Shown: positions 8,754-47,449, counted from the first letter of the stretch. The stretch is 47,449 nucleotides of DNA from Mesotaenium endlicherianum (GCA_009602735.1 WELA01002286.1:51203-98651); one strand, 5' to 3'. Made by a program: numbers and translations. Notes: generated by a model not told the origin, from the sequence alone.

Positions 8754-8754
8754 G

Positions 8755-8766
8755 TGGTATCGGAGC
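8755..8766 (+). promoter_or_regulatory. A1 primer-binding site (tRNA-iMet type)
   Basis: TGGTATCGGAGC, 1 nt after the LTR. Confidence 0.93.
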
Positions 8767-8790
8767 TAGGCACTTTGGTAGCACAAGAAG

Positions 8791-13658: not shown

Positions 13659-14283
13659 CATTAGACACTCTTCTCTTCTCGCAGTTTCTGGACAGAAAAC
13701 TAAAACTGCTACTGGTAATAGGTCTCTGCATAATAAATTCTGAAAATTTACCTGGCTGTAGTCCATGAGTAGCCGGTCATTTAGAGTCCAAGTTTGCTCA
13801 ATTTGGAGCACTGGTGAGAGAGATATGATGCTCTAAGTAGAAGGGGGTCAGGCTGCTGGCATTGTTAGGACAGAATATGCCTTCTGACATTGTGCCTTCC
13901 CCTGAACTTGGAATGCTCTGAAACTCAAGACTCTGGTAGAACATCTTACAGCGCCCAGTTTGAGACTTAGTTTGCAGAATTTGGAGAAGTATAGAAGGAC
14001 TTATGATTTTCAGAAGTTTCTGCACAGATTTGGAGGAGTGCCTACTCTCTCAGCTCTCAACGACACTCCAGAAATGAGAATGCTCTCAAATTTGGTGACC
14101 CGGTAGAGTTCTCCGACGCGGTCCGTCTGGCACTCAAATTTTTAGATTTGGAGCAGTTCTGTGGCCGCTATGAGTTTTTGAGTTCGTGGCAGATTCTGGG
14201 CCAGCTTGTACAATTTTCTTTATCATTAAGGAGTAGGCTAGCCAATAAGGTCACACCACCTACGACCTTGCCTAGTCTACCTT

Positions 14284-14391
14284 ACATGTGTAGCACCTGA
14301 CTTGGCGCCTTTGACTAGTCCTCTTCACATGTGTGGCATCTGACTTGAAACTGTTGACTAGTTTGCTCCACATGTGTAAGACCTGACTTGA
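14284..14391 (+). repeat. 43-bp period imperfect tandem repeat in the A1 3' UTR
   Basis: ACATGTGT...CTGACTTG at 14284, 14327 and 14370. Confidence 0.75.
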
Positions 14392-14417
14392 CGCGCCGAG
14401 ACGTCGCTTTTTCTATC

Positions 14418-14427
14418 GGGGGGGTGA
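14418..14427 (+). promoter_or_regulatory. A1 polypurine tract
   Basis: GGGGGGGTGA immediately before the 3' LTR. Confidence 0.85.
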
Positions 14428-14930
14428 TGTAGTGATTTGAGTTATTATATATTAGTTTGCATATATTTTAATGTTTTCAAATATATTTGGAGTAGTATTG
14501 TGTGGAGTCAAGTGTGAATAGGTACTCTAGTAACTTGGTTCATGTCCTTTGAACCTTCCAAGGCATTTTCGAAGTTAGAGGAAAGACCTAGAAGAACTCC
14601 ATGTGGCAAAAGTCAGATGTGCCATTTTTAGGTCAAAAGGACATGTGTACATTATTCTAGAAAGAGGTGGCAAGTTTTGGGATGTGTTGGGTGCCAACAC
14701 ATCAACATACACCTTCCTAGAAATTACTTATGTAGCAAGTATATAAACAAGAGCTAGAACATAGAAAGACATTCCAGAATCCCTCTTGTACTTGCCAACA
14801 TCCAGAAATATATTAACTTTCAAGAAGCCATCTCTCTTTCAAGAAGCTACCACTTGTGTTCAAAGATCCTTGTCTTGAATAGATAAAGTATTCTGTTTTA
14901 CTAAGTACTTTATCTATCCGTTTCACTACA
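14428..14930 (+). repeat. A1 3' LTR
   Basis: 503-bp direct repeat of 8251-8753 with 12 mismatches by manual count. Confidence 0.97.
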
Positions 14931-21890: not shown

Positions 21891-22393
21891 TGTAGTGAAA
21901 CAGATAGATAAAGTACTTAGTAAAACAAAATACTTTATCTATTCAAGACAAGGATCTTTGAACACAAGTGGTAGCTTCTTGAAAGAGAGATGGCTTCTTG
22001 AAAGTTAATATATTTCTGGACTTTGGCAAGTACAAGAGTGATTCTGGAATGTCTTTCTATGTTCTAGCTCTTGTTTATATACTTGCTACATAAGTAATTT
22101 CTAGGAAGGTGTATGTTGATGTGTTGGCACCCAACACATCCCAAAACTTGCCACCTCTTTCTAGAATAATGTACACATGTCCTTTTGACCTAAAAATGGC
22201 ACATTTGACTTTTGCCACATGGAGTTCTTCTAGGTCTTTCCTCTAACTTCGAAAATGCCTTGGAAGGTTCAAAGGACATGAACCAAGTTACTAGAGTACC
22301 TATTCACACTTGACTCCACACAATACTACTCCAAATATATTTGAAAACATTAAAATATATGCAAACTAATATATAATAACTCAAATCACTACA
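21891..22393 (-). repeat. A2 3' LTR
   Basis: 503 bp, with the PPT complement TCACCCCCCC at 22394-22403. Confidence 0.97.
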
Positions 22394-23162
22394 TCACCCC
22401 CCCGATAGAAAAAGCGACGTCTCGGCGCGTCAAGTCAGGTCTTACACATGTGGAGCAAACTAGTCAACAGTTTCAAGTCAGATGCCACACATGTAAAGAG
22501 GACTAGTCAAAGGCGCCAAGTCAGGTGCTACACATGTAAGGTAGACTAGGCAAGGTCGTAGGTGGTGTGACCTTATTGGCTAGCCTACTCCTTAATGATA
22601 AAGAAAATTGTACAAGTTGGCCCAGAATCTGCCACGAACTCAAAAATTCATAGCGGCCACAGAACTGCTCCAAATCTGAAAATTCGAGTGCCAGACGGAC
22701 CGCGTCGGAGAACTCTACCGGGTCACCAAATTTGAGAGCATTCTCATTTCTGGAGTGTCGTTGAGAGCTGAGAGAGTAGGCACTCCTCCAAATCTGTGCA
22801 GAAACTTCTGAAAATCATAAGTCCTTCTATACTTCTCCAAATTCTGCAAACTAAGTCTCAAACTGGGCGCTGTAAGATGTTCTACCAGAGTCTTGAGTTT
22901 CAGAGCATTCCAAGTTCAGGGGAAGGCACAATGTCAGAAGGCATATTCTGTCCTAACAATGCCAGCAGCCTGACCCCCTTCTACTTAGAGCATCATATCT
23001 CTCTCACCAGTGCTCCAAATTGAGCAAACTTGGACTCTAAATGACCGGCTACTCATGGACTACAGCCAGGTAAATTTTCAGAATTTATTATGCAGAGACC
23101 TATTACCAGTAGCAGTTTTAGTTTTCTGTCCAGAAACTGCGAGAAGAGAAGAGTGTCTAATG

Positions 23163-26100
23163 TCAATTTTTCCTCTTTCTTGTTCTTGCAGGCTGCCTCC
23201 AAGGGGTCTTCTGCTGCTTCTTGATGGTGGCAGGCTGCCTCCCTGAAGTCTTCGGGCTTCTAGTAGAGAGACTTGGGGCTGGTCCAAGATGGGGGTTGGC
23301 GGCATGGAAGCGCTTCAACTTTCTCTGAACTTTGTCAAGGTAGTGCGCCGCCACCCAACTATTCTCCGAATCTGGATATCCTTTCCACTTGATCAAGTAT
23401 TGCTGCTGTCTCCTGAAATTTCTCATAGCCACTATGTCTTCCACTTCGTACTCCAAATGATCATCCACTATTGTTGGGGCTGGTGGGGTTGTCACACGTC
23501 CTGGGAACTTGTTGTCGGGTTGCACATATGGCTTGAAGAGGGAAGCGTGGAATACGGGGTCGATGTGCATAGTCTGGGGAAGTTCTAGCTTGAAAGCAAC
23601 GGGGTTGACTTGCTGGATAATCTTGAAGGGTCCCAAATACTTGGGAGAGAACTTGCTGCCGGCAGGCCTGTTGTTCAGGGAAATGTTCTTGGATGATAGT
23701 AACACGTTGTCACCCACTCTGTACGTAATTTCTCTTCTGGATCTGTTCGCCACTCTTGCTTGAGCATCTTGCGCGTGTTGTAGAGCTTTCTTCGCTGCTG
23801 TAAGGGCTGCTTCTAATGTCTCCATAAAATCTGTGGCTGCAGGTACTTCATCATGGCCAGCCGTGAAGCTCAGTGGCGTGGTCGGATGGAAGCCATAGTT
23901 GAGGAAGAATGGGGACTCTTGGGTAGAGGCCTGCGTAGTGTTGTTGTAGGCAAACTCGAGGGGGGTCAAGTACATGTCCCAGTCTTGCTCGAGGGTAGAC
24001 ACGTAGGCCTTTAGAGAGGTCTTTAGGGTACGATTCATACGCTCGGTTTGCCCATCTGATTGTGGGTGGTAGGCAGTAGACATATCCAGCGATGTACCCA
24101 AGTTCTTGAAGAGATTTTTCCAGAAATGGCTTGTGAATCTTGGATCTCTATCTGACACAATTCTTGATGGTAGTCCATGGAGTCGGAAGATGTTGTCAAA
24201 GATGAGTCTTGCAAGTTGTGGTGCTGTAGCCTTAGTCGTCGTGGGAATAAAATGAGCCATCTTGGTAAGTCTGTCCACCACCGTGAGTATTGCATTATGG
24301 CCTCGAGGTGTCACGGGCAAGTCCACGATAAGGTCCATTGAGATGTCCGTCCATTGTCTTTCGGGGATTGGTAGTGGTTGGAGGAGTCCTCCCGCCTTTT
24401 GCGATGATGGCTTGATTCTTTGGCATGTGTCACAGCTCCTGCAGTACTCCTTGACTTGCTTAGACATGCCTGGCCAACAATAAGTCCTAGCTAGAACGCC
24501 CGTGGTCCTTAGGATTCCAAAGTGTCCTCCAAGAGGGTTGTCGTGTGCTTCTCGTAGAAGCAAGAGCCGGAGGTCTAAGTCATTAGGAACACATCTCTGG
24601 CCCGTATCTTGCCTCACCCAATAATTGCCTTCTTGCTTCTTGCATGGGTCCAAGGCTGCTTCTCCGTTCTTGTAGTAAGGGTCTCTTTCATAGGCGGCTG
24701 AAAATCGAGCTTCCAGATCTGTCTTCAGGGATACCATCACTGCATTTAATTGCAGTCTTGAGAGGGGGTCAGCCGGGTTTGTCTTGCCGGGCTGGTACTG
24801 AATCGTGATGTTGTATTGTTGCAAGTATCCGCTCCATCTTGCTTGTCTCCTTGAGAGATACGGCTGCGTCTGGAGGTGCTTTAACGCCTCGTGGTCCGTG
24901 GTGACCAGTACTTTGCGTCCTTCAACGTAGCAGCGCCAAACCTTCAAGGCATGTACAATCGCCAATGCCTCTCGCTCCGTGGTTGTATAATTTTGCTCGG
25001 CTGGATTTAGCTTCCTTGACTCGTAGGCGATGGGCTGCAGTCCCTTGCCTTGGTCTTGAAGCAGGATTGCTCCTATTGCATAGGAAGATGCATCGGTGAT
25101 GACGTGGAAGGGCCAATCTGGGTTTGGACTTGGGAGTGTGAGCACCGGGGATGTGGTCAATCTTCGCTTTAACTCTTGAAATGCCTCTTCCTCTTTCTCG
25201 GTCCATGTATATAGCCTGTCCTTCTTGAGTAGATCTGTCAGGGGGGCTGCTATGTGCGAGAAGCCTTGGATGAATTTTCTGTACCAATTGGCAAATCCCA
25301 AGAATGACTGGAGTTCTTTCTTGGTCGTGGGGGTTGGCCATTCCTCCACCACCGTGGTCTTCTTGGGGTCTATCTTGATGCCATCAGCAGTCACGTGGAG
25401 ACCTAGGAACTCCACTTCTTGTTTGGCAAACTCGCATTTTGACTCCTTCGCAAACAGCTTGTTTTGCTTCAATACTTCAAGGACTTCTTTCAAGTGTCTC
25501 GCATGCTCTTCAAGGGTCTTGCTGTAGATAAGGATGTCATCGATGAATACCACCACAAATCTGTCCAACATGGGCTGAAATATGGTGTTCATCATAGTCA
25601 TGAAAGTTGCTGGCGCGTTGGTGAGTCCAAATGGCAGGACCATGAACTCAAAATGTCCATATCTTGTCCTGAATGCCGTCTTCTCTATGTCCGGTTCTGC
25701 GATGCGAATCTGGTGGTAGCCGCTCCGTAAGTCAATCTTCGTGAAGTACTTGGCTCCAACCAGCCGGTCCATGAGCTCATCCATGCGCGGCAGCGGGTAT
25801 CGATTCTTGATGGTGATCTTGTTGAGGGCGCGATAGTCCACACACATCCTCAAGGTACCATCTTTCTTCTTGACAAATAGCACCGGGGCTCCAAATGGCG
25901 ACTTGCTAGGTCGAATGAAGCCATGCTCCAGTAGCTCCTTGATTTGCTTCTTGACTTCGTCTAGCTCCGTGTATGACATTTTGAACGTAGGCCGAGAGAT
26001 GGGCTTGCTTCCGGGCTCCAACTCTATCTTGTGGTCTACGAATCTTTTGGGGGGTAGGCCCTTGGGCAATTCCGGGGAGAACACTTCTTTGTAGTCCTCA

Positions 26101-26828
26101 AAGACTTCTTGTATCTCCTTGGGAACGGGGCTGCCTTCTTGACTCTCGATGTCTTTCTTGATGTCTTTTGGCGTGATCAAGGCCAAAAGAAGCTCGTGTC
26201 CCTTCCTCACAAGTCTCTTGAGTTGGAGGGCGGACAATAGTATCTCGTGTGCCGGCTTCTGGATGTCTTGGGTCTGGATATTCTGGATTGCGCGCAAAAT
26301 ACAGATTCTTGAAGTGATGTCATTCTTGATCTTGATAGTACCGGTCCTCCAATCAACTTGGGGGTTGTGCTTGGTCAACCAAGGCGTCCCTAGGATGACG
26401 TCGTACTTGCCCAATTGCATGGGGGAGAACACTACTCTATCCTTGAAGGACTTGATAGAGAGTGCCAAGGGGTACGTCTTCTTGGAAGGGGTAGTATAGG
26501 AGAATCCATCGGGCATCATAATCTCCTCGTCGTGGTCAAGAGTTCGCATAGTAATACCGTGCTTGGTGGCAAAATCTGCAGCAATGAAGTTGCCTTGAGC
26601 TCCGCTATCCACCAAGATGTGGACCTTCTCTCCTCCAAGGTAACCTCTCAAACTCATTGGGGCTGGAACGTCGTCTTCAACGGGGGTCTCCACCTCACTT
26701 GGCGTGTTGCCTTCTCGTGAAGTGGGTCTTGGGGTGGTAGGCTCCTGGCCTACCGGCGCTGTCCGTTTTTTGACAACTTTTTGGGGCATGAAAGTGCACG
26801 ATGGCCCTTTTCCTTGCAATAGAAGCAT
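23163..26828 (-). CDS. pol: Pol: protease, RT, RNase H, integrase, chromodomain
   Basis: 1221 aa, 10 amino-acid differences from A1 Pol. Confidence 0.97.
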
Positions 26829-28030
26829 AGTCCAGCCGTCATGAGAGCTTCTTTTTCAGCCGGGGAGAGTCTTGCTTTCACTCCTTGCTGGTTTCTTGCA
26901 TCATAAGTGTCATTGGAGGGTCTTCCACTCTTCCGGGCAGCCGCGGGGTCCCTTTTAATAACTCCGATTTCCATGGGTGTGGGTCCAGATTCGGATGTGG
27001 AAGGGGCTGCGTACACCCGCGTCGTCGGTACCCGTGAAGATGAAGGCACGGAGTGCTTGAAATCCAAGGTATCCACCTTTTGGGCCACTTCAATGATCTT
27101 TGAGAAGTCCGTCAAGTCGCGTAACTCCACTTCCTTTGCCACCTTGGGTTTGAGGCCAAAGATGTAACGGTCAATCTTCTCCTCGAGAGACATGTTGGGG
27201 ATCTCAAGAGTGAGGGCGTGAAATCTGGATGTATACTCTTGAACGGACGTCGTTTGCTTGAGATGGTGGAGCTTTCCTCGGGCAATCTTCTCCGCATTGA
27301 TGGGCATGAATTGCTTCTTGAGGGCCTCACGAAAATCTGCCCATCTTGCATATGATGGTGGGGGCTCTTGGCCGAGCATGGGGTGCGCCATAGCTTGATA
27401 TATAGCCGCTTGATAGTTACGCCACCATGATGTTGCTGCTCCTCTAAGTAAGGTAACGGCAAAGGGAACGTAGTCCTCCTCGGGTACTTCAAGGAACGCG
27501 AGGTACGTCTCCACTTGGTAGAGCCATAAATTCAGGTTGGCACCTTTCCCGGGGTTGAAAGTGTCGGGTTTGCCGGGCTTGATGAGTTTCCTTGCTCTCG
27601 TTGGCTCTTGTGGAGGCGCTTGAGCCGGGGCTGGATTTTGAGCATTGCTCGCAATAGGGGCAACCATGGCAGCCATAGCTTCTCTTGACGCTTGCACGGT
27701 TGCTTCATAGGTGGCCAAGCCCACTTGGTTGTGGACGGTCATTAGGAAGGCTGCCCACTCATTTGCGGGAACTCCTTGTGGTGGGGTCAACTTTGCTATA
27801 GCGGCTGCCACGGGATTTGACGGTGCTCCTCCTTGTGGTGCTTCTTGTTGTTGCAGATTTCCTTGAGTAGGCTCTCCCATCGACGCTGGAGGAGGGTGTG
27901 CTCCTCCTTGTGGTGCTTCTTGTTGTTGCAGATTTTCTTGAGTGGGCTCTCCCATCGGCGCTGGAGGAGGGTGTCTTGGAGAGGAAGGGCTTCCTTCGAA
28001 AGCTTGCTGTTGGTCTTGAGGATCGGCCAT
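26750..28030 (-). CDS. gag: Gag (426 aa)
   Basis: Protein identical to A1 Gag. Confidence 0.95.
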
Positions 28031-28054
28031 CTTCTTGTGCTACCAAAGTGCCTA

Positions 28055-28066
28055 GCTCCGATACCA
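28055..28066 (-). promoter_or_regulatory. A2 primer-binding site
   Basis: TGGTATCGGAGC on the - strand. Confidence 0.93.
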
Positions 28067-28067
28067 C

Positions 28068-28570
28068 TGTAGTGAAACAGATAGATAAAGTACTTAGTAA
28101 AACAGAATACTTTATCTATTCAAGACAAGGATCTTTGAACACAAGTGGTAGCTTCTTGAAAGAGAGATGGCTTCTTGAAAGTTAATATATTTCTGGATTT
28201 TGGCAAGTACAAGAGTGATTCTGGAATGTCTTTCTATGTTCTAGCTCTTGTTTATATACTTGCTACATAAGTAATTTCTAGGAAGGTGTATGTTGATGTG
28301 TTGGCACCCAACACATCCCAAAACTTGCCACCTCTTTCTAGAATAATGTACACATGTCCTTTTGACCTAAAAATGGCACATCTGACTTTTGCCACATGGA
28401 GTTCTTCTAGGTCTTTCCTCTAACTTCGAAAATGCCTTGGAAGGTTCAAAGAACATGAACCAAGTTACTAGAGTACCTATTCACACTTGAGTCCACACAA
28501 TACTACTCCAAATATATTTGAAAATATTAAAATATATGCAAACTAATGTATAATAACTCAAATCACTACA
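28068..28570 (-). repeat. A2 5' LTR
   Basis: 503 bp with 7 mismatches to 21891-22393 by manual count. Confidence 0.97.
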
Positions 28571-32411: not shown

Positions 32412-33166
32412 TGTAAGGTCATAGATTTATAAAGTGCATCTATGAGTTTCATGAAAGTTTTCTTTGATTGCATAGAAGTGTAGAGTGCATTTTTGTGATC
32501 ATTTTGATATAAAGTTCATCGAAGTTGGTCAAGTGTTGAGAGAGTTATGGATTTCCAAAGTTTAATAAGTCTTGAGGTCGGTTGACGACTGTCCTTAATT
32601 CGCGGTGAGCGCGACCGTCGGATTGACCGACAGCATCGAGCAGTCTGGCCCATTATAGTGAACTCAAACCTTCACGTAAGTTTGGCTGACGCGGAGTGCA
32701 GACTAGGTCGACTAACCTAGAAGTTTCGGTTTACCCTAGCGCCCCTAAGATAGAATATTCGAGAAATTTCAGTGCATGCATGTGAACGTCAAATCGACTT
32801 GACACGTCAGATGAGACTGATTTGGCTTACTCATGGATATTTTGGAAAAGACAATTTGACAAACACTTAGGAAAATCCGTTGCTAAGCGGCCCTCTCGTC
32901 TAGAGAAGAGGCCTTAGGTCAGAAAACTATAAATAGGCATTACTACTTCATTTCTCATCAGTTTTCACTTCTGTACATTTCTACGGGTTTGTTATGACAA
33001 GGTCTTTCATCCTAGATAATTTGTGAGCAAATTCTTGGTAGTCAACATGTCCAGTTATTTTCCTAAGCTTTCTTAGTGATATGCCGCTGCACTCTTCAGT
33101 TCGATTGCAACTCGTTCCTTTCCTCGTGAGTTACTACGCTTACACTAGGCCACTCTGCCCTTTTCA
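32412..33166 (+). repeat. C2 5' LTR
   Basis: TGTAAGG...TTTCA followed by the PBS. Confidence 0.88.
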
Positions 33167-33203
33167 TTTGGTATCAGTGCTGGGCTATTTTGCATACTAT
33201 ATT

Positions 33204-34235
33204 ATGGAGTCGCAGCCGGCAGCTGGAGGAGGCGAACACGTCGAGCATGTTGAGAGTGCAGGGCGACAGGTAGCACCAACGATCAACAAAGAGCAACAAG
33301 AAATGCAAGCGATGCTAAGGCAAATGGCGAATGCAATTGGAGGAGAAGTCTACACACAGTTTCAAAAAAATATGCGCCAGGATGTGGAGAGAACGGTGCG
33401 AGTTGTTGTTGGGAATGCCGCTTCAACGAGTTCGACACCTGCACCTGTTGTACCACCAATTCATGTTCACCCAGTGGTGCAAGTAGTTGTTCCACCTACA
33501 TCGGGAGTGCGTGCGCCTAAGCGTGAAGTGTATACAGGAGAGCGTGGATCGCCGCCTGTTCATGAATGGATTTTTGGAATGAAGAAGATTGTGGAGTATT
33601 ATGCGCTCACGCCCGACAGGCAAGTCCCCTTTGTCATAACTTTGCTGCAAAAGAGAGCTGGAGCTTAGTACGAACGAGAAACGCAGCTGTCTCGAGTCCC
33701 TGCTATTGTTGATTAGCTATTTGAAGGCTTGAAGAGGCAATTTCAACATTTTGCACCCGAGGCTACCGCTCGAGATCTATTGGTGTGCCTTCGTCAACGA
33801 GGAAGCGTTCAGGAGTATGTTTTGCGATTCAACGAGCTGGTGCTTCAATGTCCATCCATGCACGAGTCGGAGGTGATGGACAAGTTCAAGAGGGGATTCA
33901 AGCCAACTGTGGCCAAGGAAGTGGCGCTCAAGGACCCTACCAATCTTGGAGAAACGATGGCATTGGCAACAAGGGTCGCCGCAGTGGGATTTAGTCAGAG
34001 GCAGTGGGGCAGCCACAACTTTGGAGGATATCGACACTTTGGATCTCAGGCGCCAAGCACGAGTGTTCAAGGTCCAGTACCTATGGAGTTGGGACTTGTC
34101 CAGAACCAGTGCAGGCAACAGAATTATGAGCCAAGAGGACCCTGCTATAATTGCGGCAAGCTTGAAAATATGGCTCGAGACTGTCATGTGAAAGCGAAGC
34201 ACCCTCAAGAGCAGGAAAAAGGAGGACGCCAATAA
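33204..34235 (+). pseudogene. gag: C2 gag (internal stop at 33666)
   Basis: LRQRGSVQEY, GPVPMELG and the degenerate knuckle CYNCGKLENMARDC. Confidence 0.88.
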
Positions 34236-34246
34236 GTCGTTTTGGG

Positions 34247-36624
34247 GTGTCTACTTGCCGGAAGATGAGAACTCACAAAGAGGTTATCTCCACAAGCCTG
34301 CCGAGAAGCAAAGGACGAGAAGTTGACAAGCCTATCATCGTGGAAAGAGTAGTCGACGGCAACAAGGGGAAGTGTATGGTCGACAGTGGCGCAACTGCAA
34401 ACTTTGTGCACAAGAAGCTGGTGAAAGAGTGGCGAATCCTTGTGCAGAAGCATTATGAGCCTAAAGAGGCAATAATGGCGAATGGGCAAGGACTCAAGTG
34501 CGGTGCACCTACGGAAGCTATTCGCGTGGAAGTAGCGGGGCACCAGAGTAAGGTAGTTATGGAGCAGGCAGAGTTGGGTCACCATGAGGTGATATTGGGC
34601 CGACCATGGCTGAGGAAAGCCAACCCTCAAGTGCACTGGAGCACAGGAGAAGTGAAAGTCGAAGGGCGTGATGGGTGAGTGGAGACAGCGAAACACGTGG
34701 AGGTAGATACGACCACAAGTACTGTCTTCTGTTGAGCCTGCAAGTTAAGAAGCTATGCAGGGCGAATCAGGTGAAGGAGATGTACCTTGTTTTGGTGGCC
34801 CTGGCGAGGTCATTAGATGGAGCAAGCGTGAATCCTAAGGGCCTGCGCAAATGTACATCGCCGGAGGAGCAAGTAGTGGTGTCCGATCCCCTTGCTCCAA
34901 AGAAGCAGAGCCCAACTGCTCAAGCGAAGAAGCCTGCTGAGATGCCTGCCCAAATTAAGGCGCTGTTGGAGGAATTCAAGTGCGTTCTTCCTGAGGAGGT
35001 ACCTGCAGGATCACCTCCACAAAGAGCTATGGAGCACAAGATCGAGTTGGAACCAAGGAGCGAGCCACCTATGAGACCCGCCTATCGACCATCGTTTGCG
35101 GAGTTGGATGAGTTGAAGAAGAAGCTGACGAAGTTATTGGAGAGGGGATTCATCCGACTCAGCGATTTTCCATTTGCAACGGCAGTCTTATTTGTGAAGA
35201 AGGACGATGGAACTATGAGAACGTGTGTCGACTACCAAGCACTCAACAAGATCACTATCAAGAACAAGTACCCACTTCCACAAGTGGACGAGTTGAGTAA
35301 GAGGCTTGTCGGGGCGAAGTATTTCTTGAAGATCGATTTGAGGAGTGGCTATCACCTGGTACGAAATGCGAAAGGAGCCGTTTAGATACTGCTTCCAGGA
35401 CTTGCTATGGTTTATTCGAGTTCACGGTCATGCCTTTTGGGCTGACTAATGCACCTGCTACATTCGTGGGACTCATGAACAATATCTTCAGAGCCTATTT
35501 GGACCAGTTTGCGGTGGTATTTTCGGACGACATCCTGATCTATTTGAAGACCTTAGAAGCGCATGTGGAGCATCTGAGGAAGGTGTGGGAGGTCTTGAGA
35601 GATAAAAAACTATATGGGATGATGAGCAAGTGCGACATCTGTCTCAAGGAAGTAATGTTTCTTGGACACATAGTGGGAGCTGAAGTAGTCAAGGTGGAGC
35701 AGAAGAAGGTGCAAGCAGTCAGAGATTGGCCGGTACCTGCTGATATTCATCAACTCAGGATCTTCCTTGGCATGGCAAAATATTATCGACGTTTCATTGA
35801 AGAATTTGCCAAGGTGTGTGCACTGCTCACGGACATGTTAAAGAAGCAGGAGAAGTGGCTATGGATTGACAAGGAGCAGCAAGCTTTCGAGAAGATTAAG
35901 GTGTTGTTGACAAAGGCACCTGTGTTGGCAATTGCCAATCCAGAGCTTCCTTTCACCATCATTACGGACGCATCAAATTTGGCAGTGGGAGCCATTCTTC
36001 TCCAAGACCAGGGCAAAGGATTGCAGCCTACGGCATACGAGAGCAAGAAATTGAGTCCTGCTGAGCAGAATTATGCAGCACACGAGCAGGAAATGTTGGC
36101 TATTATCCAGACTTTGAGGATTTGGCGATGTTTTGCGGACAGCCGGAAGGTGTTCATCAAGACCGACCACAAGAGCTTAGAGAAGTTTATGACGCAGCCA
36201 ACATTGACACCAAGACAAGCAACGTGGATGGAGTTTTTGCAACAGTTCGACCACAAGATTGAGTACTTATTTGGGAAGATCAACCCTGCAGACGCTTTAT
36301 CCAAGAGGTGTGACCTGCAGCTATCTGAGTTATCAAGGAGAGTATGGACTTCAAGCAGAAGCTTAAGAGAGTTCATGAGAAGGATCATGAATTTGCAGAT
36401 GGTGGAGCAGCTGAGTTCAACTCAAGTATGCTGAAGAAGTACGGCATATTGTATTATGGTGATTCCAATAAGGTGGTGGTCCGTGACATCAAGGAGCTAC
36501 GAGACTTACTACATGCGTAGCATCATAATTGCTTATATGCTAGACACTTTGGAAGAGAGAAGACGGCAATCGTGCTGAAGCGGGAGTATTATTGGAGAGA
36601 CATGGACATTGACATCGAGGAGTG
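34247..36624 (+). pseudogene. pol: C2 pol remnant (protease, RT, RNase H, start of integrase)
   Basis: [20 protein letters not shown] and TDASN. Ends within the integrase Zn-binding region (HFGREKT...YYWRDMDIDIEECV). Confidence 0.9.
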
Positions 36625-37339
36625 TGTAAGATCTTAGGTTTATAAAGTGCATTTTTGAGTTTTTGAAAATATTTCTAGATTGTTTAGTAGTGTAGAATGC
36701 ATTTTTGTGGTCATTTTGATAGAAAGTTCATCGAATTTGGTGAAGTATTGAGAGAGTTATGGATTTCCAAAGTTTAATTAGTTTTGAGGTGAGCTCGACC
36801 ATCGGATTGACCGACAGCGTCGAGCGATCTGGCCCGTTAAAGTGAACTCGAACCTTCACGTAAGTTTGGCTGACGTGGAGTGCCGACTAGGTTGATTTAC
36901 CTAGAAGTTTCGGCTTAGCCTAGCGCGCCTACGACATAATATTCCAATATAGTCGATGCATGTATGTGGACGTCAGTTCGACCCAACACGTCAGATGAGA
37001 CTGATCTGGTCTACTCACGAATATTCTAGAAGGGACGATTTGACAAACACTTAGAAAATTCCGTAGCTTTCTCCTAGAGTGGAGCACTTAGGCATAAAAC
37101 TATTAATAGGCATAACTTCTTCATTTCTTATCAATTTTGACTTCTGTAAATTTCCACGGGTTTGTAACGACGAGGTCTTTCATCCTATACCATTTGTGAG
37201 CAGTTTCTTGCTACTCAAAATGTTTAGTTATTTTCCTAAGCTTTCTTAGTGATATGGCGCTGCACTCATTAATATGATTGCAACTAGTTTCTTTCCTCGT
37301 GAGTTACTACGCTTCCACTAGGGCAATCTGCCCCTGTCA
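36625..37339 (+). repeat. C2 3' LTR
   Basis: Diverged direct repeat of 32412-33166, followed by the TSD. Confidence 0.88.
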
Positions 37340-37991: not shown

Positions 37992-38518
37992 TGTGAAAGA
38001 GATTCACAAAGCTCTTTCTGGATACCTCAGCGACGGGCGTCCTACCCTTTCCAACTGCTTGTCATACCCGACTTCTCTGCCCCGCCAACCGAAGCTGGGT
38101 ACACGTACATTCGCGTCACTCGCTCGCGGCACTGCGCGACACAGTTTTATTCCATCTGCAGAATGCGCTCGATTAAGCTCGAATAGTATCATTCTTCGTG
38201 ATTGTTTGTGATACCTGTCGTGCCTAACAGTGTCGGTCCCTCGGCACGTGCGTAGCCTTCTAGCACGTGTGCCTTCGGCCTGGTTGATGTGTCGGTGGCC
38301 CTCCTCACGAGTGGCAGACATGGTTGATTGACCTTTGCACGTGTGTCGGTGACAAGCCTTACCAGGGTTAACCCATCCCTGGGTTCTTGAACTTGCACCA
38401 TGCAGCCTTGACCAACACTTTGGGTGACGTTCTCTGCCACCCGGCTCTCACCATCTGCTTATCCTAAGACTTTAGCAGAAAATTTAAAAATACTTGCCTT
38501 GCCTAAATTCCTCTTACA
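37992..38518 (-). repeat. Probable 3' LTR of element D
   Basis: Starts TGTAAGAG directly after a PPT, has AATAAA at 38146-38151 (-) and a candidate end CTCTTTCACA. No second copy is in the window, so the distal boundary is tentative. Confidence 0.55.
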
Positions 38519-38565
38519 CCCCTTCCTTTCAGCTGAGGCGTCCCTGCCTTTCCTGCTGAAAGCTA

Positions 38566-41460
38566 TTATTTTTCAACGCTGCGGCTAGGGGTTTTAGGAA
38601 GGCAATCAGGACATTCCCATCGTCCTGCCATAATTTCTTCCTCGCCAATGCAGAAAGTGTGCCAACGGGCACCACACTTATCGCAAATTACCATTGCTTC
38701 TTGATCGTCCAGCACTTTGCAGCTGGCACAAGGCGTGGCTGGCACCAATTCCTCGGGCACAACCCTAACTGTGAGATCAATATTCGGCAAATGGCATAGC
38801 GAGCAATTCTGCACGTGGTCTCTCAGGGTTTTACCATCAGAACCTTCCAGTTCTAACGCACCATTGTCAAACGCATGTTTCACGCGCAAGATCACTGCAC
38901 CTGAACTGGTGTCGATGGTGGTCTTGGTTTGGCGCTTACGGTAAACAAAATCTCCTTCTTGAATCCGCGTCATCTGCAGGCGGTAGCTCCCGTCTCGCGT
39001 CCTGGCGTAACGTTGCGTATCTCTTTTCTGTGCAATTTTCAGATTGTCTAGTGCAGCCGGTATCATGCGCTCAAATAACGCCTTACGGCGCACCATCACT
39101 TTTAACAGTTCATCAGGGCTGTCCAGGTCTTGCACCTGTTCAATCTCCTGCTTAATGCTGCTGGGCACTACTGGACTTCTGCCAAACAGTATCTGATATG
39201 GCGAGTAATTTGCCAAGGCAGCCTGCTTGCTAAATCTGTAACCCATAACCAGCCATGGCAGGGCTAGATCCCTGTCACGCTTGTCATGCTCAAGGCAAAA
39301 CTTGCGCAAAGCAGACTTAATGGTTTGCACCATCCTTTTTGCCAGACCAGCTGCTTGCGGATGATCTCTAGACGTAGTGCGATGATCGATGAAGCATCTG
39401 TCCAAGAGTTTCTGAAAAGACCCTTGGAACTCAGACCCTTGGTCTGTCAGCATTTCTGCTGGAGCTCCATGACGCACAATCACACCATTGAGGAACGCTT
39501 TCGCGGTCCCTAGACTCTCCTTAGCAGTCAGAGGGACAACCTCTATCCACTTAGAGAAATGCTCAATCATGACCATGATATACTTGTTACCTCGCTTAGA
39601 CAGCGGTAGATCACCAGCGAGATCGCAGCTCCAACAGTAGCCTAGGCCCATGATTGGCAAAGGTTGCAAGTGTGGATGTTGCTGTGTAAATCCAGCCTTG
39701 ACGCGATCACAGCTTTGGCAGGCCTTGATCACATCTCCACACTGCTCCTTCATGCCCCTCCACCAGTAAGACAGCTCCAAAAGACTATATGTCTTCTTGA
39801 CACCATAGTGTCCAGTGTTCTCGTGCATTTCCAGCACAAGGGCTCGTCTCCTGATGGGTTCTGGCACTAACTCCTCCTGACCAGTCTCTTCAATTTTGAA
39901 GAGGTTGTTACGTTTCCAGCAAAACCTTTTAGCTCGATGGTTTACCTGGTCCTTCTCCTTCACTAATAGTCCTTCCAAGTGAGTTCCCGTCTTCAGCCAG
40001 TGCATAGTAGCTTGATCTTTCCAGATCTCTGGACTGAACAGGGGTAGAGGCTCAGCTTCACCTGATGCTACTATTCCAGCCATTTCGGCTAGGCAAGCCA
40101 CCAACTCTGCTGGGCTGCTCGGGTCGTCGTCCTCTCGAGCTCCTGTTCTGTCGTCTGAAGATGGGTCTGGGTTCCTGCTGAGTCCATCGGCGTCGTTGTT
40201 GAGCACTCCTGCTCTGTGCACCACCGTCATTTGGTACTCTTGCAGCTTAAGAGCCCAGCGAGCCAACTTACCAGTGAGGTCTCCATTCTTCATCAGCCAT
40301 AGTAATGGTGAGTGATCCGTGATCAGTGTGAAGGGTCTACCCCACAGATACTCTTTGAAGTGTGTGATCGCCCAAACCACTGCCAGCAGCTCTCCTTCAT
40401 AGGATGAGTAGTTGCTCTCCGCTCGATTGTTAGAGCGTGAGGCAAAGGCAATGACATACTCCTCTCTAGGGCTTGTGGCCTGAATGAGTACTGCGCCAAT
40501 TCCCAGACGACTCCAGTCAGTGTGCAGATTGAACGGCTTGGAGTAGTCAAGCGTTCGCAAGACTGGGGCTGTTACCAGCCGCTCCTTAAGCTCGTTCATG
40601 GCTTTCTCCTGAGCTTCTGTCCACACAAAAGGTACATCCTTTTTCAGGATTTCCGTCAAGGGTTTAGCAATTCTGCTATAATCCTTCACAAACTTACGAT
40701 AGTATCCGCTTAGCCCTAACAGAGCTTTCAGCTTAGACACATTTGCAAGTGCAGGTATCTTGTAAATAGCCTCGGTCTTCACAACCTGAGGGGACATAGC
40801 ATTGTTCCCAATCTCATGTCCTAGGTAAGGCACGTGTGCCTCAAAGAATCTGCACTTCCCAAGATGCAGCTTCATCTGGAATTTCTCCAGGCGCTGGAAC
40901 ACTTGTTCCAAGTGCTCGAGGTGCTCCTCTATGGACTTGCTGAATACTACCACATCGTCAATGTATGGCTTAGCAAAATCCAGCCCCTCCAGCACTTTAT
41001 TTTTAGTCCTCTGAAATATGGCTGGGGAATTTTTCAGCCTAAATGGCATTACTGTCCATTGCCAAAGTTCCCTTTGAGCCCAGAAAGCAGTCTTACCTCG
41101 ATCTTCTGTTTTCACAGGGATTTGGTTGAAGCCTTGGCGCAGATCGATAATGCTGAACACCTTTCCGGTGGTGGCAATTGCAAAGATCCTTTCCGGTGTA
41201 GGCATCACATAGCTATCTGGCTCCGTGTAGAGATTCAGTCGCCTGTAATCTCCACACATACGAGTGGCAGTGTAATTGCCGGCCTCGTCCTTTTTAGCGA
41301 CTACTACTGTAGGAGCCCCATGTACTGAGGTAGATTTTTCAATCATGCGGAGCTTATGCAGCTCTTCACAAGTTTTCTCCACACAGTCCCATTCTGTCTG
41401 ACTGAGCTTATGCGGCCCTAGTTTGACTGGGTTATCAGTAGTTAGTGTGATCTCACACAC
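38566..41460 (-). CDS. pol: RT, RNase H, integrase and PHD part of the D polyprotein (open, probably inactive)
   Basis: RMCGDYRRLN, YIDD, HTDWS, HENTGH...CQSC, WSCDL and LTDQG. The integrase catalytic Glu position reads K (GLAKRMVQ). Confidence 0.93.
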   Translation of the reverse strand: MCEITLTTDNPVKLGPHKLSQTEWDCVEKTCEELHKLRMIEKSTSVHGAPTVVVAKKDEAGNYTATRMCGDYRRLNLYTEPDSYVMPTPERIFAIATTGKVFSIIDLRQGFNQIPVKTEDRGKTAFWAQRELWQWTVMPFRLKNSPAIFQRTKNKVLEGLDFAKPYIDDVVVFSKSIEEHLEHLEQVFQRLEKFQMKLHLGKCRFFEAHVPYLGHEIGNNAMSPQVVKTEAIYKIPALANVSKLKALLGLSGYYRKFVKDYSRIAKPLTEILKKDVPFVWTEAQEKAMNELKERLVTAPVLRTLDYSKPFNLHTDWSRLGIGAVLIQATSPREEYVIAFASRSNNRAESNYSSYEGELLAVVWAITHFKEYLWGRPFTLITDHSPLLWLMKNGDLTGKLARWALKLQEYQMTVVHRAGVLNNDADGLSRNPDPSSDDRTGAREDDDPSSPAELVACLAEMAGIVASGEAEPLPLFSPEIWKDQATMHWLKTGTHLEGLLVKEKDQVNHRAKRFCWKRNNLFKIEETGQEELVPEPIRRRALVLEMHENTGHYGVKKTYSLLELSYWWRGMKEQCGDVIKACQSCDRVKAGFTQQHPHLQPLPIMGLGYCWSCDLAGDLPLSKRGNKYIMVMIEHFSKWIEVVPLTAKESLGTAKAFLNGVIVRHGAPAEMLTDQGSEFQGSFQKLLDRCFIDHRTTSRDHPQAAGLAKRMVQTIKSALRKFCLEHDKRDRDLALPWLVMGYRFSKQAALANYSPYQILFGRSPVVPSSIKQEIEQVQDLDSPDELLKVMVRRKALFERMIPAALDNLKIAQKRDTQRYARTRDGSYRLQMTRIQEGDFVYRKRQTKTTIDTSSGAVILRVKHAFDNGALELEGSDGKTLRDHVQNCSLCHLPNIDLTVRVVPEELVPATPCASCKVLDDQEAMVICDKCGARWHTFCIGEEEIMAGRWECPDCLPKTPSRSVEK
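38602..38730 (-). other. PHD finger at the integrase C-terminus
   Basis: C4HC3 spacing with W two residues before the last Cys pair: CASC...MVICDKCGARWHTFC...GRWECPDC. Confidence 0.92.
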
Positions 41461-43700
41461 ACTGGCAGTGGTTCTACCAATCTCCTCCTTAGTGAAAGCA
41501 AATACCTTGCGNCACCTCGCGGTGTTTCTTCAGCAACCTTTCTACTCGTGCTCTCTGCTGGGCTGAGACCATTTTCCCAATGGCAAAAGTCTCAGTTTCA
41601 GGTTGCTTCTCCCCAACAAAGGCATCCAGTAGTTGCTACTCCTTAGGTGCAGGTGGGGGCTTCCCGCCCTCATCGTGGCCCTCAGGCTTTTCTGCCCGAT
41701 TCTGGCTCTCAGGCTTTTCTGCCTGATTCTTAGGAGGTGGGGTAGCATGCTTTGCAGCTTGCTCCTCCGTTGCCATAAGTTCGGCAGCCTGTTTCTTAGG
41801 CTTTTTACCTTTCCCAATGACGCGTCGCCTCTCCTGCGGTGAGGGGTATGTGAGGCGCCTCCGGATGGGCTGCCTCAGGAACATTTCCTCGTCGACTCCA
41901 GTCCAACTGGTCCCGGTTCCTCCTTCTTCACGTGGCCAAGGTTGGTTTGCCATTGGAAAACCTGCGGGATCTACCCTAGGGCTGATCGCCCAGCCCCATT
42001 CTCGCTCAATAATAGCCATGCGGGCAACAGTCGTGCCATACTCCTCCCTTGCGGGTGGTGTGACCATCCATGCCTGCGCCAATGTTTGCGGCCTTTGAGG
42101 TGCTGCTAGTTGTGCGAGAAAGGCATCATCTGCTGCGGTCAAGCGACTGATGGTGTTTCTGAGATCCATCAGTTCCCATCCTGGGATTGCAGGTATCATG
42201 GGAGCAGGTTCTTCCGACCTCTGTATCCTAAGATCTGATAGTTGCAACAAAGGCGTGTTCATGCCTGGCGGAACACTAATACCCAATGCCATTGCCCTGC
42301 AAACCAAACCGTCCTCTCCCTCTCTCTGCAGAATATCCCGCAGAGGCGGAGGAGGTGGGGCTGTGGTTCCTCGCGGAACGCCCTCTCTCTGAGCGTTCCC
42401 CTTATGCTTCAAATATCGCTTTAGTATCCTCCTAAAAGATGCCTTACCCTCACGGGCCACCTTCCTTGGTCTGCTTGCGCGACTTTCGGGCTTTCCTTGT
42501 GCTGTCTTTACTTTAGCAGTGCAGGCAGTCACCTCCTGCCGTTGCGGCAGTTTTGCGGTTGACTTGGGTTCCGCCACTAGAAGACTGGCAGAAGGAGAAT
42601 TGGATGTTGGCGACCTTAATTCTTCATAAAGGTCTGCCGGGCTTGGCCCCATCAGGTGGTCAACCACCTAGTCGTCTGTCCTGAGCTCCTGTAAGTCCAG
42701 CAGATCCAACTATGGCGTGGGAAAACGTGGAACTTTTTCCCTAATGTCTCCTTTGTTGTTGAGTGATGGCGACTCCAACTCCGAGAGGCCTTGCATCTCT
42801 GCATCCTCTTCCTCCTCCGGCTTCTCTATTCCAGGAGGAGGCAATTCTTCATCCCCTCCTGTGTTGAGCCTCGCCATGTTGATGATGGCTGACTGTAGAG
42901 CGAGAGCTGCTTTCGCCACTTTCTCTTCCTTGAGTCGAGGGGCGTCTGCTTCCAGCAACTGCGCCATGATTTGCCTGGTGATTGACTCAGCTGTGCTGCC
43001 AACTGCGTCTTGTGGTTGCCCTTTGGCCTCTGGCCCTGGGCTCATCAGAGCAAGTGTGGCGGGCAATCTCTTGGCCGTCTCCTTCTTGTGTTCTTCAAAA
43101 ATCACCTCCAGGCAAATGGTCTTTCCAGACCCTCCATAATTTCCTGAATTTTGACTGCATTCTTCGGCCCATTCGTCAATATTGCACTGGCGTTCTTCAT
43201 ATCTTGATGTTACCGCGTCTGGGGATGGGCTCCCAAAGACCTGGTCTGGGGCCATTTTTCGTAACTCAAAACTGGTATCTTCCTCCCATTCCGGCATCCT
43301 CCCAAATATTTATTTGGCGGGAGCGTTCTGCAAATGCTGGGACCTCCTGTGATTTGCTTACTACAGCGCTCACCGAAGGGTTTGCTGCACCAGTTGCCTG
43401 GTTGTCCATGGTTACGTCTTCTCGCAGCCTCCGCAACTCTCTTTCCAGAGGGTAGTGTAGAGTCGCCATCCGATTGTCAATTTGCGTCAATAAGTCTTGA
43501 CACCTGGTCAGCTCCACCACTCTGGTTTCTCCGAGTGTTTCATCTTGGTCAGCCTCAGCTGCGTCTCTTTCACCACCATATTCTTTTTGTCGCTGATACG
43601 CTTCCCTGATAGCTCTCTGATCAGAGGTTGGCACCACATGGACTCCAATCGTTACCGGCCTCGGCCTGGGCATAGGCTTGTCAGAGAACGTCACCTGTTG
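41461..43700 (-). pseudogene. About 740-codon linker of unknown function between DNMT and RT
   Basis: ORFs 42710-43297 and 41636-42667 share a frame, separated by TAG stops. The frame continues into typical pre-RT text (RVERLLKKHREV/FAFTKEEIG). Confidence 0.7.
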
Positions 43701-45180
43701 CCAAGTCATAATCGTCTCTACCAACCATGTCATGGAGTGATGCCCACTCATGTTGCCGAATATCTTCCCAGCGTTGTCCTGTCCCACCATTGCAACAATT
43801 TCTTGTGCAATGGAGTTGGATACCCCCAGGCACCTTCCCTTCTCTTCAGTTGTCGGCTCTCTCCACTGAGCTTCTCTGTCGTGCACATCTTTGACCATTC
43901 CTGGTCCTCCATTCACGAAAGCGCGTGATCCTGGGTATGCTGTGAAGGTGGGCAGCACCACCCTGGGCCGGCCTGGCTCGTTGACGACGTACTGTGGGTA
44001 GGAATCCCTCCTGATCACTGGCTTGGTTTCCACCATCAGTGCTTCTCCCACAGATACTGCCGTTGGCGTGCGCCGCGTAATCTCCTCCATCTCCGTCAGG
44101 ATTTCAATGGACATGCCGTTGGTCCAGAATAGTCTGGCCCGGTGTGAGAGTCCTCCGTGCCTGGCGTTGTTGGCCAATACATGATGACCCAGGGTAGAGT
44201 CGAAGACCAGCCATGGATCTCCTGGCTTCATCTGGTTGTAATCCATCCCTGGATGTACATTCTCAATCACAAATACTGGTGGGTAGAGATGCTGGCGTTC
44301 CCGCAGCATACTGATGATCTTCACCATCCTTCCCCAGTGTTGTGCTCGCGGGTCATTGAATCTCCTCCTGTTCCCAGCTTGCGAGAAAGGTTAACAAGGG
44401 AATCCCGCAAAAATCCAGTCAATCGTGTAACCATACAGGTCCTCAGACTTCACATCGAGAATGTTTTCTCCAGCAAGACGCACCACACTAGTGGGCACCA
44501 ACGCCTTAAAATGGTACATTTGCCGCATCTGACTCATGATGTAGTGATTTGAGTTATTATATATTAGTATGCATATATTTTAATGTTTTCAAATATATTT
44601 GGAGTAGTATTGTGTGGATTCAAGTGTGAATAGGTACTCTAGTAACTTGGTTCATGTCCTTTGAACCTTCCAAGGCATTTTCGAAGTTAGAGGAAAGACC
44701 TAGAAGAACTCCATGTGGCAAAAGTCAGATGTGCCATTTTTAGGTCAAAAGAACATGTGTACATTATTCTAGAAAGAGGTGGCAAGTTTTGGGATGTGTT
44801 GGGTGCCAACACATCAACATACACCTTCCTAGAAATTACTTATGTAGCAAGTATATAAACAAGAGCTAGAACATAGAAAGACATTGGAGAATCACTCTTG
44901 TACTTGCCAAAATCCAGAAATATATTAGCTTTCAAGAAGCCATCTCTCTTTCAAGAAGCTACCACTTGTGTTCAAAGATCCTTGTCTTGAATAGATAAAC
45001 TATTCTGTTTTACTAAGTACTTTATCTATCTGTTTCACTACACATGACCTCCTCAAATGCTGTAAAAACATTCTCATCATTGTCCACATACAGCACTTTG
45101 GATACCTGGATACCTCGTTGAATCAGTGCAATGGTTCCAATACCAAGTCCGGCGAAGAATTCCAGCACTACTACTCCTCT
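43700..45180 (-). pseudogene. C5 cytosine DNA methyltransferase domain within the D polyprotein, split by a solo LTR
   Basis: Motif I VLEFFAGLG (45142-45168), motif IV IDWIFAGFPC*PFSQAG (PC at 44394-44399), VI IENV (44256-44264), VIII HRARLFWTN (44118-44144), IX-like REPTTEEKGRCLG and X-like GKIFGN (43752-43769). Confidence 0.92.
44540..45042 (+). mobile_element. Solo LTR of family A
   Basis: 503 bp, TGTAGTGA...TCACTACA, TSD CATGA (44535-44539, 45043-45047). Confidence 0.97.
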
Positions 45181-45888
45181 CCTGCGAAAAGGATCTTCCG
45201 TCCTCACAATGCCTTGCGGCAATGGGTCTACTCCAGGCATCAAATTGGCAGCAGTCTTAACTGGATAAGGAATTGGCAGCAGCTCTTGCGGGCCACGATC
45301 CCTGTTACTCACAGCTTCTAGTTGCTCCATAATCCAAGGTTGCCAAACCAAGGGAGTCGGCATGTTGACGCTGGTGTAAATCTTCTCTTTGCGTTGCATG
45401 ATGAGGTCATAATGGTCTGGATACTGGTTATTCACATAGCAGTCTAGCAGTCCGTAGTTTGCCTCTCCCGAGCAAACCATTTTTATAGGAATTTCTCCTG
45501 TCGGCTGCCGATCTGTCGACTGGTAAGTCACCCTCTGCTTCTGCAGGTCGATGACCATACCCCGGGGAGTCAGAGCGTCTGTCCCCAATAGAACATCATA
45601 GTTTTCTGCCTCTGTCACCGTACACTCTATGAACAGTGACGCTCCCTCAGGTTTTCCCAAGTTTACTGTGATTTCCACAGGCTTGCGGGTGATTCCACAA
45701 GACTTTGAAATCTGCCCAGATGCAGTCCTCAACTGGAAAGGACTTTCTTTCAGGTCCCTTGCCGTCAATCCCAGAGCTTTCACAGCTCGCTTTCCTAAAA
45801 TTACTGGCGATGCGCCAGTGTCCAATAGGATATAGGGAGCGGCCCAGTTGTTAAACGTCAAAACTCCATCCTTGTTCTGCACTCTCAC
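45181..45888 (-). pseudogene. Aspartic protease of element D, directly fused to the DNMT
   Basis: ILLDTGAS...YDVLLGTD lies in the same ORF as DNMT motif I. Confidence 0.9.
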
Positions 45889-47307
45889 AGTGCTGAAATT
45901 AGTAGGCAGCGAAGCGCTGTTCGCGCCTTCCTCAGCTAGGTCTAGCTGCTGTCCGGCTTCCTCAATCGTGAAAGGATATGTAAGACGCAGATCAGCGAGT
46001 GAAAGACAAGGAATGTGCTAAATCCGGTGTTCCACCAGAGCCTTCTGCTTTTCCAGCGAAAAACTAAATGTCTTGCGTGGCCCAGGCTTGGCTTGTCGTA
46101 GCTGCGCAATCTCGTTCTCATCGAGAGTGATCCAAAAGGTCTGAGGAAGCTTCCCAACATTCCTTGGAACCAGACGGTCATGATCTGCGCGCCTCGCAGC
46201 CGTTGCAGCCACGGCCTTCTCAGGCGTCAGCTTCTCGCCTTTGCAAACGGTCTTTTTGGCCACATCTGCATCATAATAGACATTAGGCACATTTAGTCTT
46301 GCAAATTGAGCTTTCAACTCTGCAATCTCTGCACTCATAGCATCATACTTCTGATTACCCTTCCGGTTACTAGAGTTATCTCTCTCCCGTTTCTTACCCT
46401 TATCCGCCTCTTTCGTGGCAGCATTAGCCCATGGTGGTTTCAGATTTGGGTTCTTGGACCAACACTCATCTTCTGAGTGTCCCTTTTTGCTGCAATGTGC
46501 GCATACCTGCGCCGTGCTAGCAGACAATTGCTTAGCATCCGGGTGCGGACAATATCTCTTCTGATGTCCTGATTTTCTGCAGTTCCAATAGCCCTTTGCT
46601 GTCTCAACAGTGTTGGTGTGCTTAGCAAACCTATTGAAAGACCCGTTCTTTTTCTTAAACTAAAAATTAGAGCTATTGGCCTTGGGCTGAAAGGATTCCT
46701 CCCTTCTCTCAGGAGCCATAAGCGTCCTGGAAGCCTCCTTGTACCAGACTTTACCTTCCTCGACATTGCGTGCTATTTCAGCAGCCTCGTCGATGTTCCA
46801 GTCGATTCCGCGTTTCACAAATAGGTGCGGCCTGACCTCCCGATCTGTGTCTTTACCCAAACACAATAAGAATTTGTCAGCCACAATCCTAGGCTCATAG
46901 ATTCCTGCCTTCTTGGCAGGGTCTACCAATCTGGATTTGACCTCCATCACTGTCTCGTTCTTCTGACAAACAAAATGCACATAGCGATGCACTTTAAGAC
47001 TGCGATCCTTTGGGAATGTTGCTTCAAGCAACTTAAAGAAACGGCGCAGACAGTGCTCAGAGTCTAACTGGTCATCCCCAGCCTCCATATCCCTACGGCA
47101 ACTAGCCAACGCTTGCGCATGGCTTGCTTCCGTGGTGACACTATCACCATGCTGCCCTGTAAAAGGTGCAGCTCTGCGTGTTACTTGTTCCTGAGCATTA
47201 GCAATCTTTTCAGACAATTTTGCACATACTTTACGCAATTCTGCGACAGATCCAGCATCATCATCTCGAGTAGCCGCTCGCTGCTGACCCTCGGTGAGTT
47301 GCTTCAT
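45889..47307 (-). pseudogene. gag: Gag of element D with two zinc knuckles, in frame with the protease
   Basis: One frame with TAG stops at 46660 and 46018. Knuckles are (Y)WNCRKSGHQKRYC and CAHCSKKGHSEDEC. Confidence 0.8.
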
Positions 47308-47449
47308 TGTAAGGTCATAGGTTTATGAAGTGCATTTTTGAGTATCATGAAAGTATGTTTTGATTGTATAGTAGTGTAGAGTGCATTTTTGTGGTCATTT
47401 TGATATAAAGTTCATCGAATTTGGTGAAGTATTGAGAGAGTTACGGATT
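47308..47449 (+). repeat. Start of another family C LTR interrupting D gag; runs off the window
   Basis: TGTAAGGTCATAGGTTTATGAAGTGCATTTTTG matches the LTR starts at 32412 and 36625. Confidence 0.9.

Follow-up and report, generated by a model that had tools for sequence, protein, structure and literature searches.

A dead Ty3/Gypsy copy in Mesotaenium endlicherianum carries a DNMT3-like cytosine methyltransferase domain in its Gag-protease frame

Among retrotransposons that encode a C5 cytosine DNA methyltransferase (DNMT), KnitGypsy-Dnmt3 of Klebsormidium nitens joins Gypsy domains with DIRS-like repeats, according to the Fig. 4c legend of de Mendoza 2018 (PMC5890265), and a 'Gypsy-DNMT3' of streptophytes is named again in the text of bioRxiv 10.64898/2026.05.21.726589. 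We analyzed a 47,449-nt stretch of Mesotaenium endlicherianum DNA (WELA01002286.1:51203-98651; the whole stretch is referred to as the window), which is a nest of long terminal repeat (LTR) retrotransposons. One of them, a Ty3/Gypsy element on the minus strand running from 47307 to 38216, bears in this order gag, protease, DNMT, a long linker, reverse transcriptase (RT), RNase H, integrase and a PHD finger. This element is a dead, divergent copy whose C5-DNMT domain is real and, judged from its sequence, it is a divergent new member of the streptophyte Gypsy-Dnmt3 kind of de Mendoza 2018 (PMC5890265).

The open reading frame (ORF) at 46017–45022 on the minus strand encodes an aspartyl protease (LLDTGAS; 45570–45831, PF13975 E=7e-08) and runs without a stop into VVVLEFFAGLG...YVD, that is, motif I (EFFAGLG, SAM-binding) and motif II (YVD) of the N-terminal part of the DNMT (45043–45180); the original prediction, made from the sequence alone, had described this passage into motif I. 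By itself this part matched PF00145 weakly (positions 3–39, E=0.14). The domain is then interrupted by a plus-strand solo LTR of a chromodomain Ty3 family (44540–45042; 503 bp, TG..CA), which differs at 10–14 positions from the LTRs, four in all, that two full elements of the window carry, and is flanked by the target-site duplication (TSD) CATGA at 44535–44539 and 45043–45047. Excision of the LTR and one TSD (508 nt) placed the two halves of the DNMT in codon register, so the predicted repair of the frame was borne out. The second half (43700–44534, minus strand) contains the catalytic Cys (44394–44396) directly followed by a stop (44391–44393), and reads GFPC*PFS, ENV, HRARLFWTN, EEKGRCLG and IFGN, exactly as had been quoted; motifs I, IV (PC), VI (ENV), VIII (RxR), IX and X of C5-DNMTs were found in order. 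With X at the stop, this half matched PF00145 at E=1.1e-12 with a score of 48 bits (cut-off 22), whereas the ORF beginning past the stop reached E=4e-4 only. Its structural model had a predicted local distance difference test score (pLDDT) of 88, and among the Foldseek matches listed all were C5 methyltransferases, which argues that the match is not due to chance; profile and fold both agreed with the predicted enzyme.

The whole domain spans about 43700–45180, so that the extent first proposed (43700–45888) was right at 43700, while 45888 is the start of the protease. Its placement inside Gag-Pol was likewise correct in part: the DNMT is intronless and shares one frame with gag and protease, but in this copy the DNMT frame ends at 43266, short of the RT-bearing ORF (41529) by about 1.7 kb and of the RT match by 1.9 kb, so that one ORF running on through RT is not seen here. 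In an RNA run (X24, about 6/100 of the run sampled), all 207 reads fell on the solo LTR and none on the DNMT or protease, a result that is uninformative either way.

Ranking of known enzymes with the family profile placed 29 DNMT3A/B/C chains (1e-16 to 2e-13) above M.HhaI (2e-10), DRM2 (1e-7) and DNMT2, and no DNMT1 appeared among the 56 chains listed. The modeled fold of an intact relative (P0016; pLDDT 96) was closest to DNMT3B (Z 28.7, root-mean-square deviation 2.5, 270 residues aligned), followed by DNMT3A (Z 27.1), M.MpeI (24.7) and HhaI (22.1). For the window half alone, the best phmmer match was HaeIII, and Foldseek interleaved HhaI and DNMT3B. DNMT1/CMT, DNMT2, DRM and bacterial enzymes are all more distant from the family than DNMT3A/B is, and its motif order is unpermuted; this class assignment draws on the family profile and the fold of the intact relative. 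The bacterial-type character seen in the original prediction was not upheld.

Catalytic residues were nearly invariant in the relatives (Cys in 183/183, Glu of ENV in 190/191, the two Arg of motif VIII in 188/189 and 187/189, Gly of motif I in 154/157) and are also present in the window copy. Analysis of the ratio of nonsynonymous to synonymous substitution rates (dN/dS) at 11 loci with single-frame matches, where 34 of 55 pairs had usable dS, gave 0.27–0.71 for the DNMT (≤0.49 in 33 of the 34 pairs) and 0.25–0.57 for RT. The DNMT of the relatives is under constraint similar to that of RT. In the window's own family, 11 of 24 listed codon differences were synonymous, a weak indication.

We compared the window copy with contigs from the public runs X1, X5 and X6 (organisms A, B and C, three species labels). 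Position 44534 was joined directly to 45043 in one contig of each run, with sides of 28, 204 and 255 letters, respectively, and the DNMT stop was replaced by another base in every contig listed there (12 in X1, one in X5 and one in X6). Since these contigs carry neither, the solo LTR and the stop are lesions of this copy; the gag stop at 46018–46020 was also read otherwise in all three runs. Copies without the lesions came from three species labels, and the DNMT domain therefore belongs to the family, which answers the concern of a one-off insertion raised with the original prediction. Contigs covered gag, protease, DNMT, linker and pol in all four runs compared for coverage, and no contig spanned the whole element. 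Summed contig depths in X1 (DNMT 29–32k, protease region 27–33k, RT 36–51k, flank 60–157) cannot be read as copy numbers, and we based no ranking of domains on them. Ten letters of the window around its sole N (41503–41512, N at 41512) were missing from the other copies and coincide with the frame change before RT; they may be an assembly artefact. The listed differences of the window from other copies between 38216 and 47307, a partial list, were mostly of C-to-T type in the window (9 CG, 11 CHG, 13 CHH and 13 other, with 652 CG, 998 CHG and 2706 CHH sites available), a skew expected from plant-type methylation.

A word-indexed search with the DNMT half, restricted to longer proteins, found no relative among 480 candidates, but a full HMMER search with the DNMT did, retrieving 431 proteins at E≤0.001 and 133 at 1e-10. 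Among the best 150 of the 431, RT preceded the DNMT in 57, the DNMT was followed by integrase in 19 and stood after protease or before RT in 11; the remainder showed the DNMT alone (62) or none (1). Named carriers of the window's domain order were Closterium (4 proteins) and Klebsormidium nitens (GAQ93235.1), those of the order RT–RNase H–DNMT–integrase were the chlorophytes Haematococcus, Chlamydomonas eustigma and Cymbomonas, and the order DNMT–integrase–PHD was found in Pseudoscourfieldia. Single ORFs held DNMT, RT, RNase H and integrase together in P0425 (2811 amino acids, with PHD) and P0052 (with a knuckle). Some chlorophyte-type relatives (P0015, P0028, P0050, P0285 and P0287) have extra Tudor-like, G-patch or chromodomain modules.

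The chlorophyte-type order formed one clade in the RT tree (66/66, support 0.95; 100 in IQ-TREE with 50 chosen sequences) and in the DNMT tree (support 94). The window RT fell among those of Calypogeia, Coleochaete, Closterium and Klebsormidium with weak support (69–76), and its nearest named relatives, from a liverwort and Coleochaete, were about 50% identical; no DNMT was found within the named liverwort and Coleochaete RT-integrase ORFs, whose upstream DNA lay outside the comparison. FastTree joined the window DNMT to P0091 in a clade of four (0.914), which IQ-TREE on 42 sequences did not reproduce. An unbiased set was obtained by fetching 80 metagenome loci by RT-to-PHD alignment only, of which 36 included the start of RT together with 2 kb or more of upstream sequence. 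In 33 of these 36 informative loci a DNMT preceded RT, at a spacing of 0.5–0.6 kb (1.5 kb in one); the loci formed five clusters at 85% identity, one holding 30, and the DNMT occurred in every cluster. Both the family and a green-plant-wide lineage with a PHD-ended integrase carry the DNMT as a fixed and conserved component, and this lineage reaches chlorophytes, where the domain is at another position.

Upstream of the protease, the window element retains a gag remnant (46018–47307, minus strand) with two CCHC-like knuckles, two in-frame stops and weak blastp similarity to gag of relatives with protease and DNMT. Its 5' end lies beyond the window, past an LTR from a different family that has landed in gag and whose start is visible on the plus strand (47308–47449; TG start, 89–90% identity to the LTRs of the element at 32412–37339); the other copies differ in sequence from 47307, as loose ends. 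Downstream of the DNMT, a low-complexity linker of about 2.3 kb (41530–43699, minus strand), with frame changes and stops, gave no match in Pfam, the atlas or blastp; it is four times the usual length in relatives and is found in other copies, contigs of four runs covering it. The ORF that follows (38566–41529, minus strand; 987 amino acids) encodes RT, RNase H, integrase and PHD (Pfam RVT_1 3e-26, RT_RNaseH 4e-36, rve 9e-11 and PHD 5e-05), with the PHD finger at about 38602–38730 and a further H2C2 match in the integrase, so that the Ty3/Gypsy set of protease, RT, RNase H and DDE integrase is complete by Pfam.

A polypurine tract (38519–38530, minus strand) precedes a 303-bp 3' terminal repeat (38216–38518, minus strand; TG...GCACGACA), which is present as one unit followed by flank and likely corresponds to 'A' in a split-repeat arrangement. 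Among 22 relatives' loci, eight showed full B-coding-A-B-A repeats (L017, L020, L027, L030, L040, L070, L076 and L077), four an A...A pair at the 3' end and one a B pair; the rest had no clear pattern. These eight share a purine tract ahead of A, outer ends of TG..CA type and an internal A/B junction that is a near-palindrome with a 2-letter spacer; a 4-bp TSD was found in five. No tRNA primer site was seen by eye in the eight split-repeat relatives, and the split-repeat structure suggests priming without tRNA. The arrangement agrees with the DIRS-like repeats given in the Fig. 4c legend of de Mendoza 2018, the sole description of this structure that came to light. In X1, 45 diverse loose ends occurred at 38216, and one X5 contig extended from that end with GC then TGTCG (12 loose letters), a junction of the relatives' type, which makes it likely that the window family is of the split-repeat type; the window copy itself may have lost B-A by recombination. 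An assignment of 38216–38518 as a conventional 3' LTR was rejected after the relatives' split repeats had been examined. Also rejected were a DIRS/Ngaro tyrosine-recombinase element, given the rve and H2C2 integrase domains in the window and the TSDs of the relatives, and a Troyka LTR retrotransposon, a group described in the relevant part of PMC12440569 with CG..CG termini, 3-bp TSDs and animal hosts only, in contrast to the TG..CA termini and 4-bp TSDs in five of eight relatives here.

The solo LTR came from a chromodomain Ty3 family of which the window contains two recent full copies (8251–14930, plus strand; 21891–28570, minus strand). They are independent, since their TSDs differ; internal parts differ at 25/5674 sites and LTRs at 6–12/503 sites, mostly by transitions. 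A 75-nt tandem repeat is present in the chromovirus gag (8847–8996 and 27823–27972), and another Ty3 copy has an 851-bp tandem duplication (2099–3806). The neighboring chromovirus has a primer site of Met-tRNA type. Its aromatic cage appears intact, a state that the relevant part of PMC6317226 describes as confined to non-seed plants. Both features are plant-like, as are the liverwort and Coleochaete RTs nearest to that of the window.

With respect to function, we lean towards the reading that the window element is a dead copy of a Ty3/Gypsy family whose Gag-protease frame carries a DNMT3-like enzyme that likely methylates the element's own new DNA before integration. The protease would release the DNMT inside the virus-like particle, and the DNMT would methylate CG sites of the element's complementary DNA (cDNA) de novo, as SymbioDIRS-Dnmt3 domains of dinoflagellates did in yeast according to the text of PMC5890265, where de Mendoza 2018 already proposed particle packaging and self-methylation. 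The PHD finger would steer integration, so that each new insertion would already carry marks like those of host chromatin. The motifs M-L-L-C-D and G-W-H are kept by the PHD in most of 162 relatives, and we take the PHD of the lineage to lack the cage tryptophan of H3K4me3 readers and to resemble readers of the unmethylated H3 tail.

The joint presence of writer and PHD reader in most full-length relatives would also suit an active enzyme that works in trans, or on the host side once the element has integrated, methylating target chromatin or other copies and thereby limiting transposition or silencing competitors. Self-limitation was raised as an option in the text of de Mendoza 2018 (PMC5890265), and the DNMT lies in an ORF separate from integrase in some relatives (P0091, P0011 and the P0156 cluster, the last with 1043-amino-acid RT-integrase-PHD ORFs). 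A nuclear role in trans, however, would not need a fusion to Gag. The polyprotein position beside the protease favors particle packaging, as known from Ty3 biology, and also counts against action on the host side, which we consider unlikely. One RT-integrase-PHD protein of the P0156 cluster (P0321) is filed under an uncultured cyanobacterium; its source is likely plant or algal DNA that ended up in a metagenome bin.

Several observations weigh against cDNA self-methylation. Three of the 36 informative loci (two distinct) contained no DNMT, and the copies paired for dN/dS all come from one family, are decayed and are not independent of each other. Of the 34 columns conserved to 90% or more in relatives, the window DNMT matches just 25, and its branch (1.83) is the longest of 42 in IQ-TREE; because of the long branch and the nine lost columns, the window subfamily may be drifting. 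The CpG observed/expected ratio of the element (0.56–0.66) compared with that of its neighbors (0.46–0.69) revealed no element-specific depletion. No methylation was obtained with the Klebsormidium domain in yeast, a result that the authors call inconclusive in the text of PMC5890265, and no Gypsy-Dnmt3 is known to be active. The yeast result, together with the window's divergence and the absence of a CpG signature, would also fit a domain kept as a nucleic-acid-binding or structural module, binding cDNA or RNA or shielding it from host surveillance, with a methyl transfer that is weak, or not needed, in this subfamily at least. We judge such a module improbable, to about the same degree as action on the host side, since binding would not require the catalytic Cys, Glu and both Arg, which are almost invariant in 183–191 relatives and kept in the window. 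The broken state of the copy and its unusual DNMT-to-RT spacing might point to a host DNMT3 fragment captured once, in this copy, without a role in the element; this reading is refuted for practical purposes by the domain's presence in three species labels, in 33 of 36 loci fetched with an independent query and in 431 proteins at E≤0.001, and by the lack of introns.

Plant hosts silence transposons mainly by marking them with cytosine methylation, and maintenance of the element's own de novo DNMT across chlorophytes and streptophytes therefore points to a selected use of this mark by the parasite. More speculatively, and with appreciable doubt, Gypsy-Dnmt3 as a whole could be an ancient green-plant-wide lineage, recently alive in a non-seed land plant, that pairs a DNMT3 writer with an H3-tail-reading PHD as a mobile counterpart of ADD-DNMT3, needs no tRNA primer for replication and regenerates both integrase ends from a palindromic junction. 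Such a lineage, if real, would contradict the printed statement, in the relevant part of PMC6338049, that land plants such as tracheophytes have no transposons that encode DNA methylases. Tests of cDNA self-methylation become easier with a lineage that is large and alignable, places the domain in two ways, and includes many naturally intact members as well as a family that has multiplied recently.

Comparison with known systems placed KnitGypsy-Dnmt3 closest. It shares the Ty3/Gypsy RT–RNase H–integrase, an intronless DNMT3-like domain with intact catalytic motifs under purifying selection, and DIRS-like split repeats, seen here in the window's relatives; as far as its text and legend go, de Mendoza 2018 (PMC5890265) provides, with the same domain order and the repeat type seen in the relatives, the precedent to which the original prediction had pointed. 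The K. nitens protein GAQ93235.1 (P0091) has the knuckle–protease–DNMT arrangement of the window (255 amino acids aligned at 28%, E=7e-20), and K. nitens RTs belong to the same RT group as the window RT. The window element differs in its host, in a DNMT with a long branch and no more than 28% identity, in a linker of 2.3 kb instead of 0.5–0.6 kb, and in its PHD finger, which is not mentioned in the text of PMC5890265, the comparison covering that text. SymbioDIRS-Dnmt3 and SymbioLINE-Dnmt, as described in the text of PMC5890265, are also retrotransposon-borne C5-DNMTs, the DIRS version being DNMT3-like and a model for the mechanism, but have dinoflagellate DIRS (tyrosine recombinase) or LINE backbones in place of the DDE integrase and PHD found here. 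EpiLTRs/DAM-LTRs (10.64898/2026.05.21.726589) are Ty3-like and combine a DNA methyltransferase with a histone reader; in the text available, their DNMT is sister to DNMT4 and DAM and chromodomain modules accompany it, features not seen in the window element. Gypsy-7a_cRei of Chlamydomonas (PMC9940879), a Gypsy of the green lineage, likewise has a PHD finger and tends to insert in intergenic DNA; no DNMT is among the domains listed in the part consulted. The literature search, which left subscription papers, theses and Repbase outside its range, found no report on Gypsy-Dnmt3 in land plants or on its chlorophyte spread, and met the name itself in just two papers. To a kind published from one alga, the window adds one dead, divergent copy, and its relatives add the reach into chlorophytes, the pairing of DNMT with PHD, and integrase-type ends around a palindromic internal junction, although the figures of PMC5890265 may already show the PHD and the domain order.

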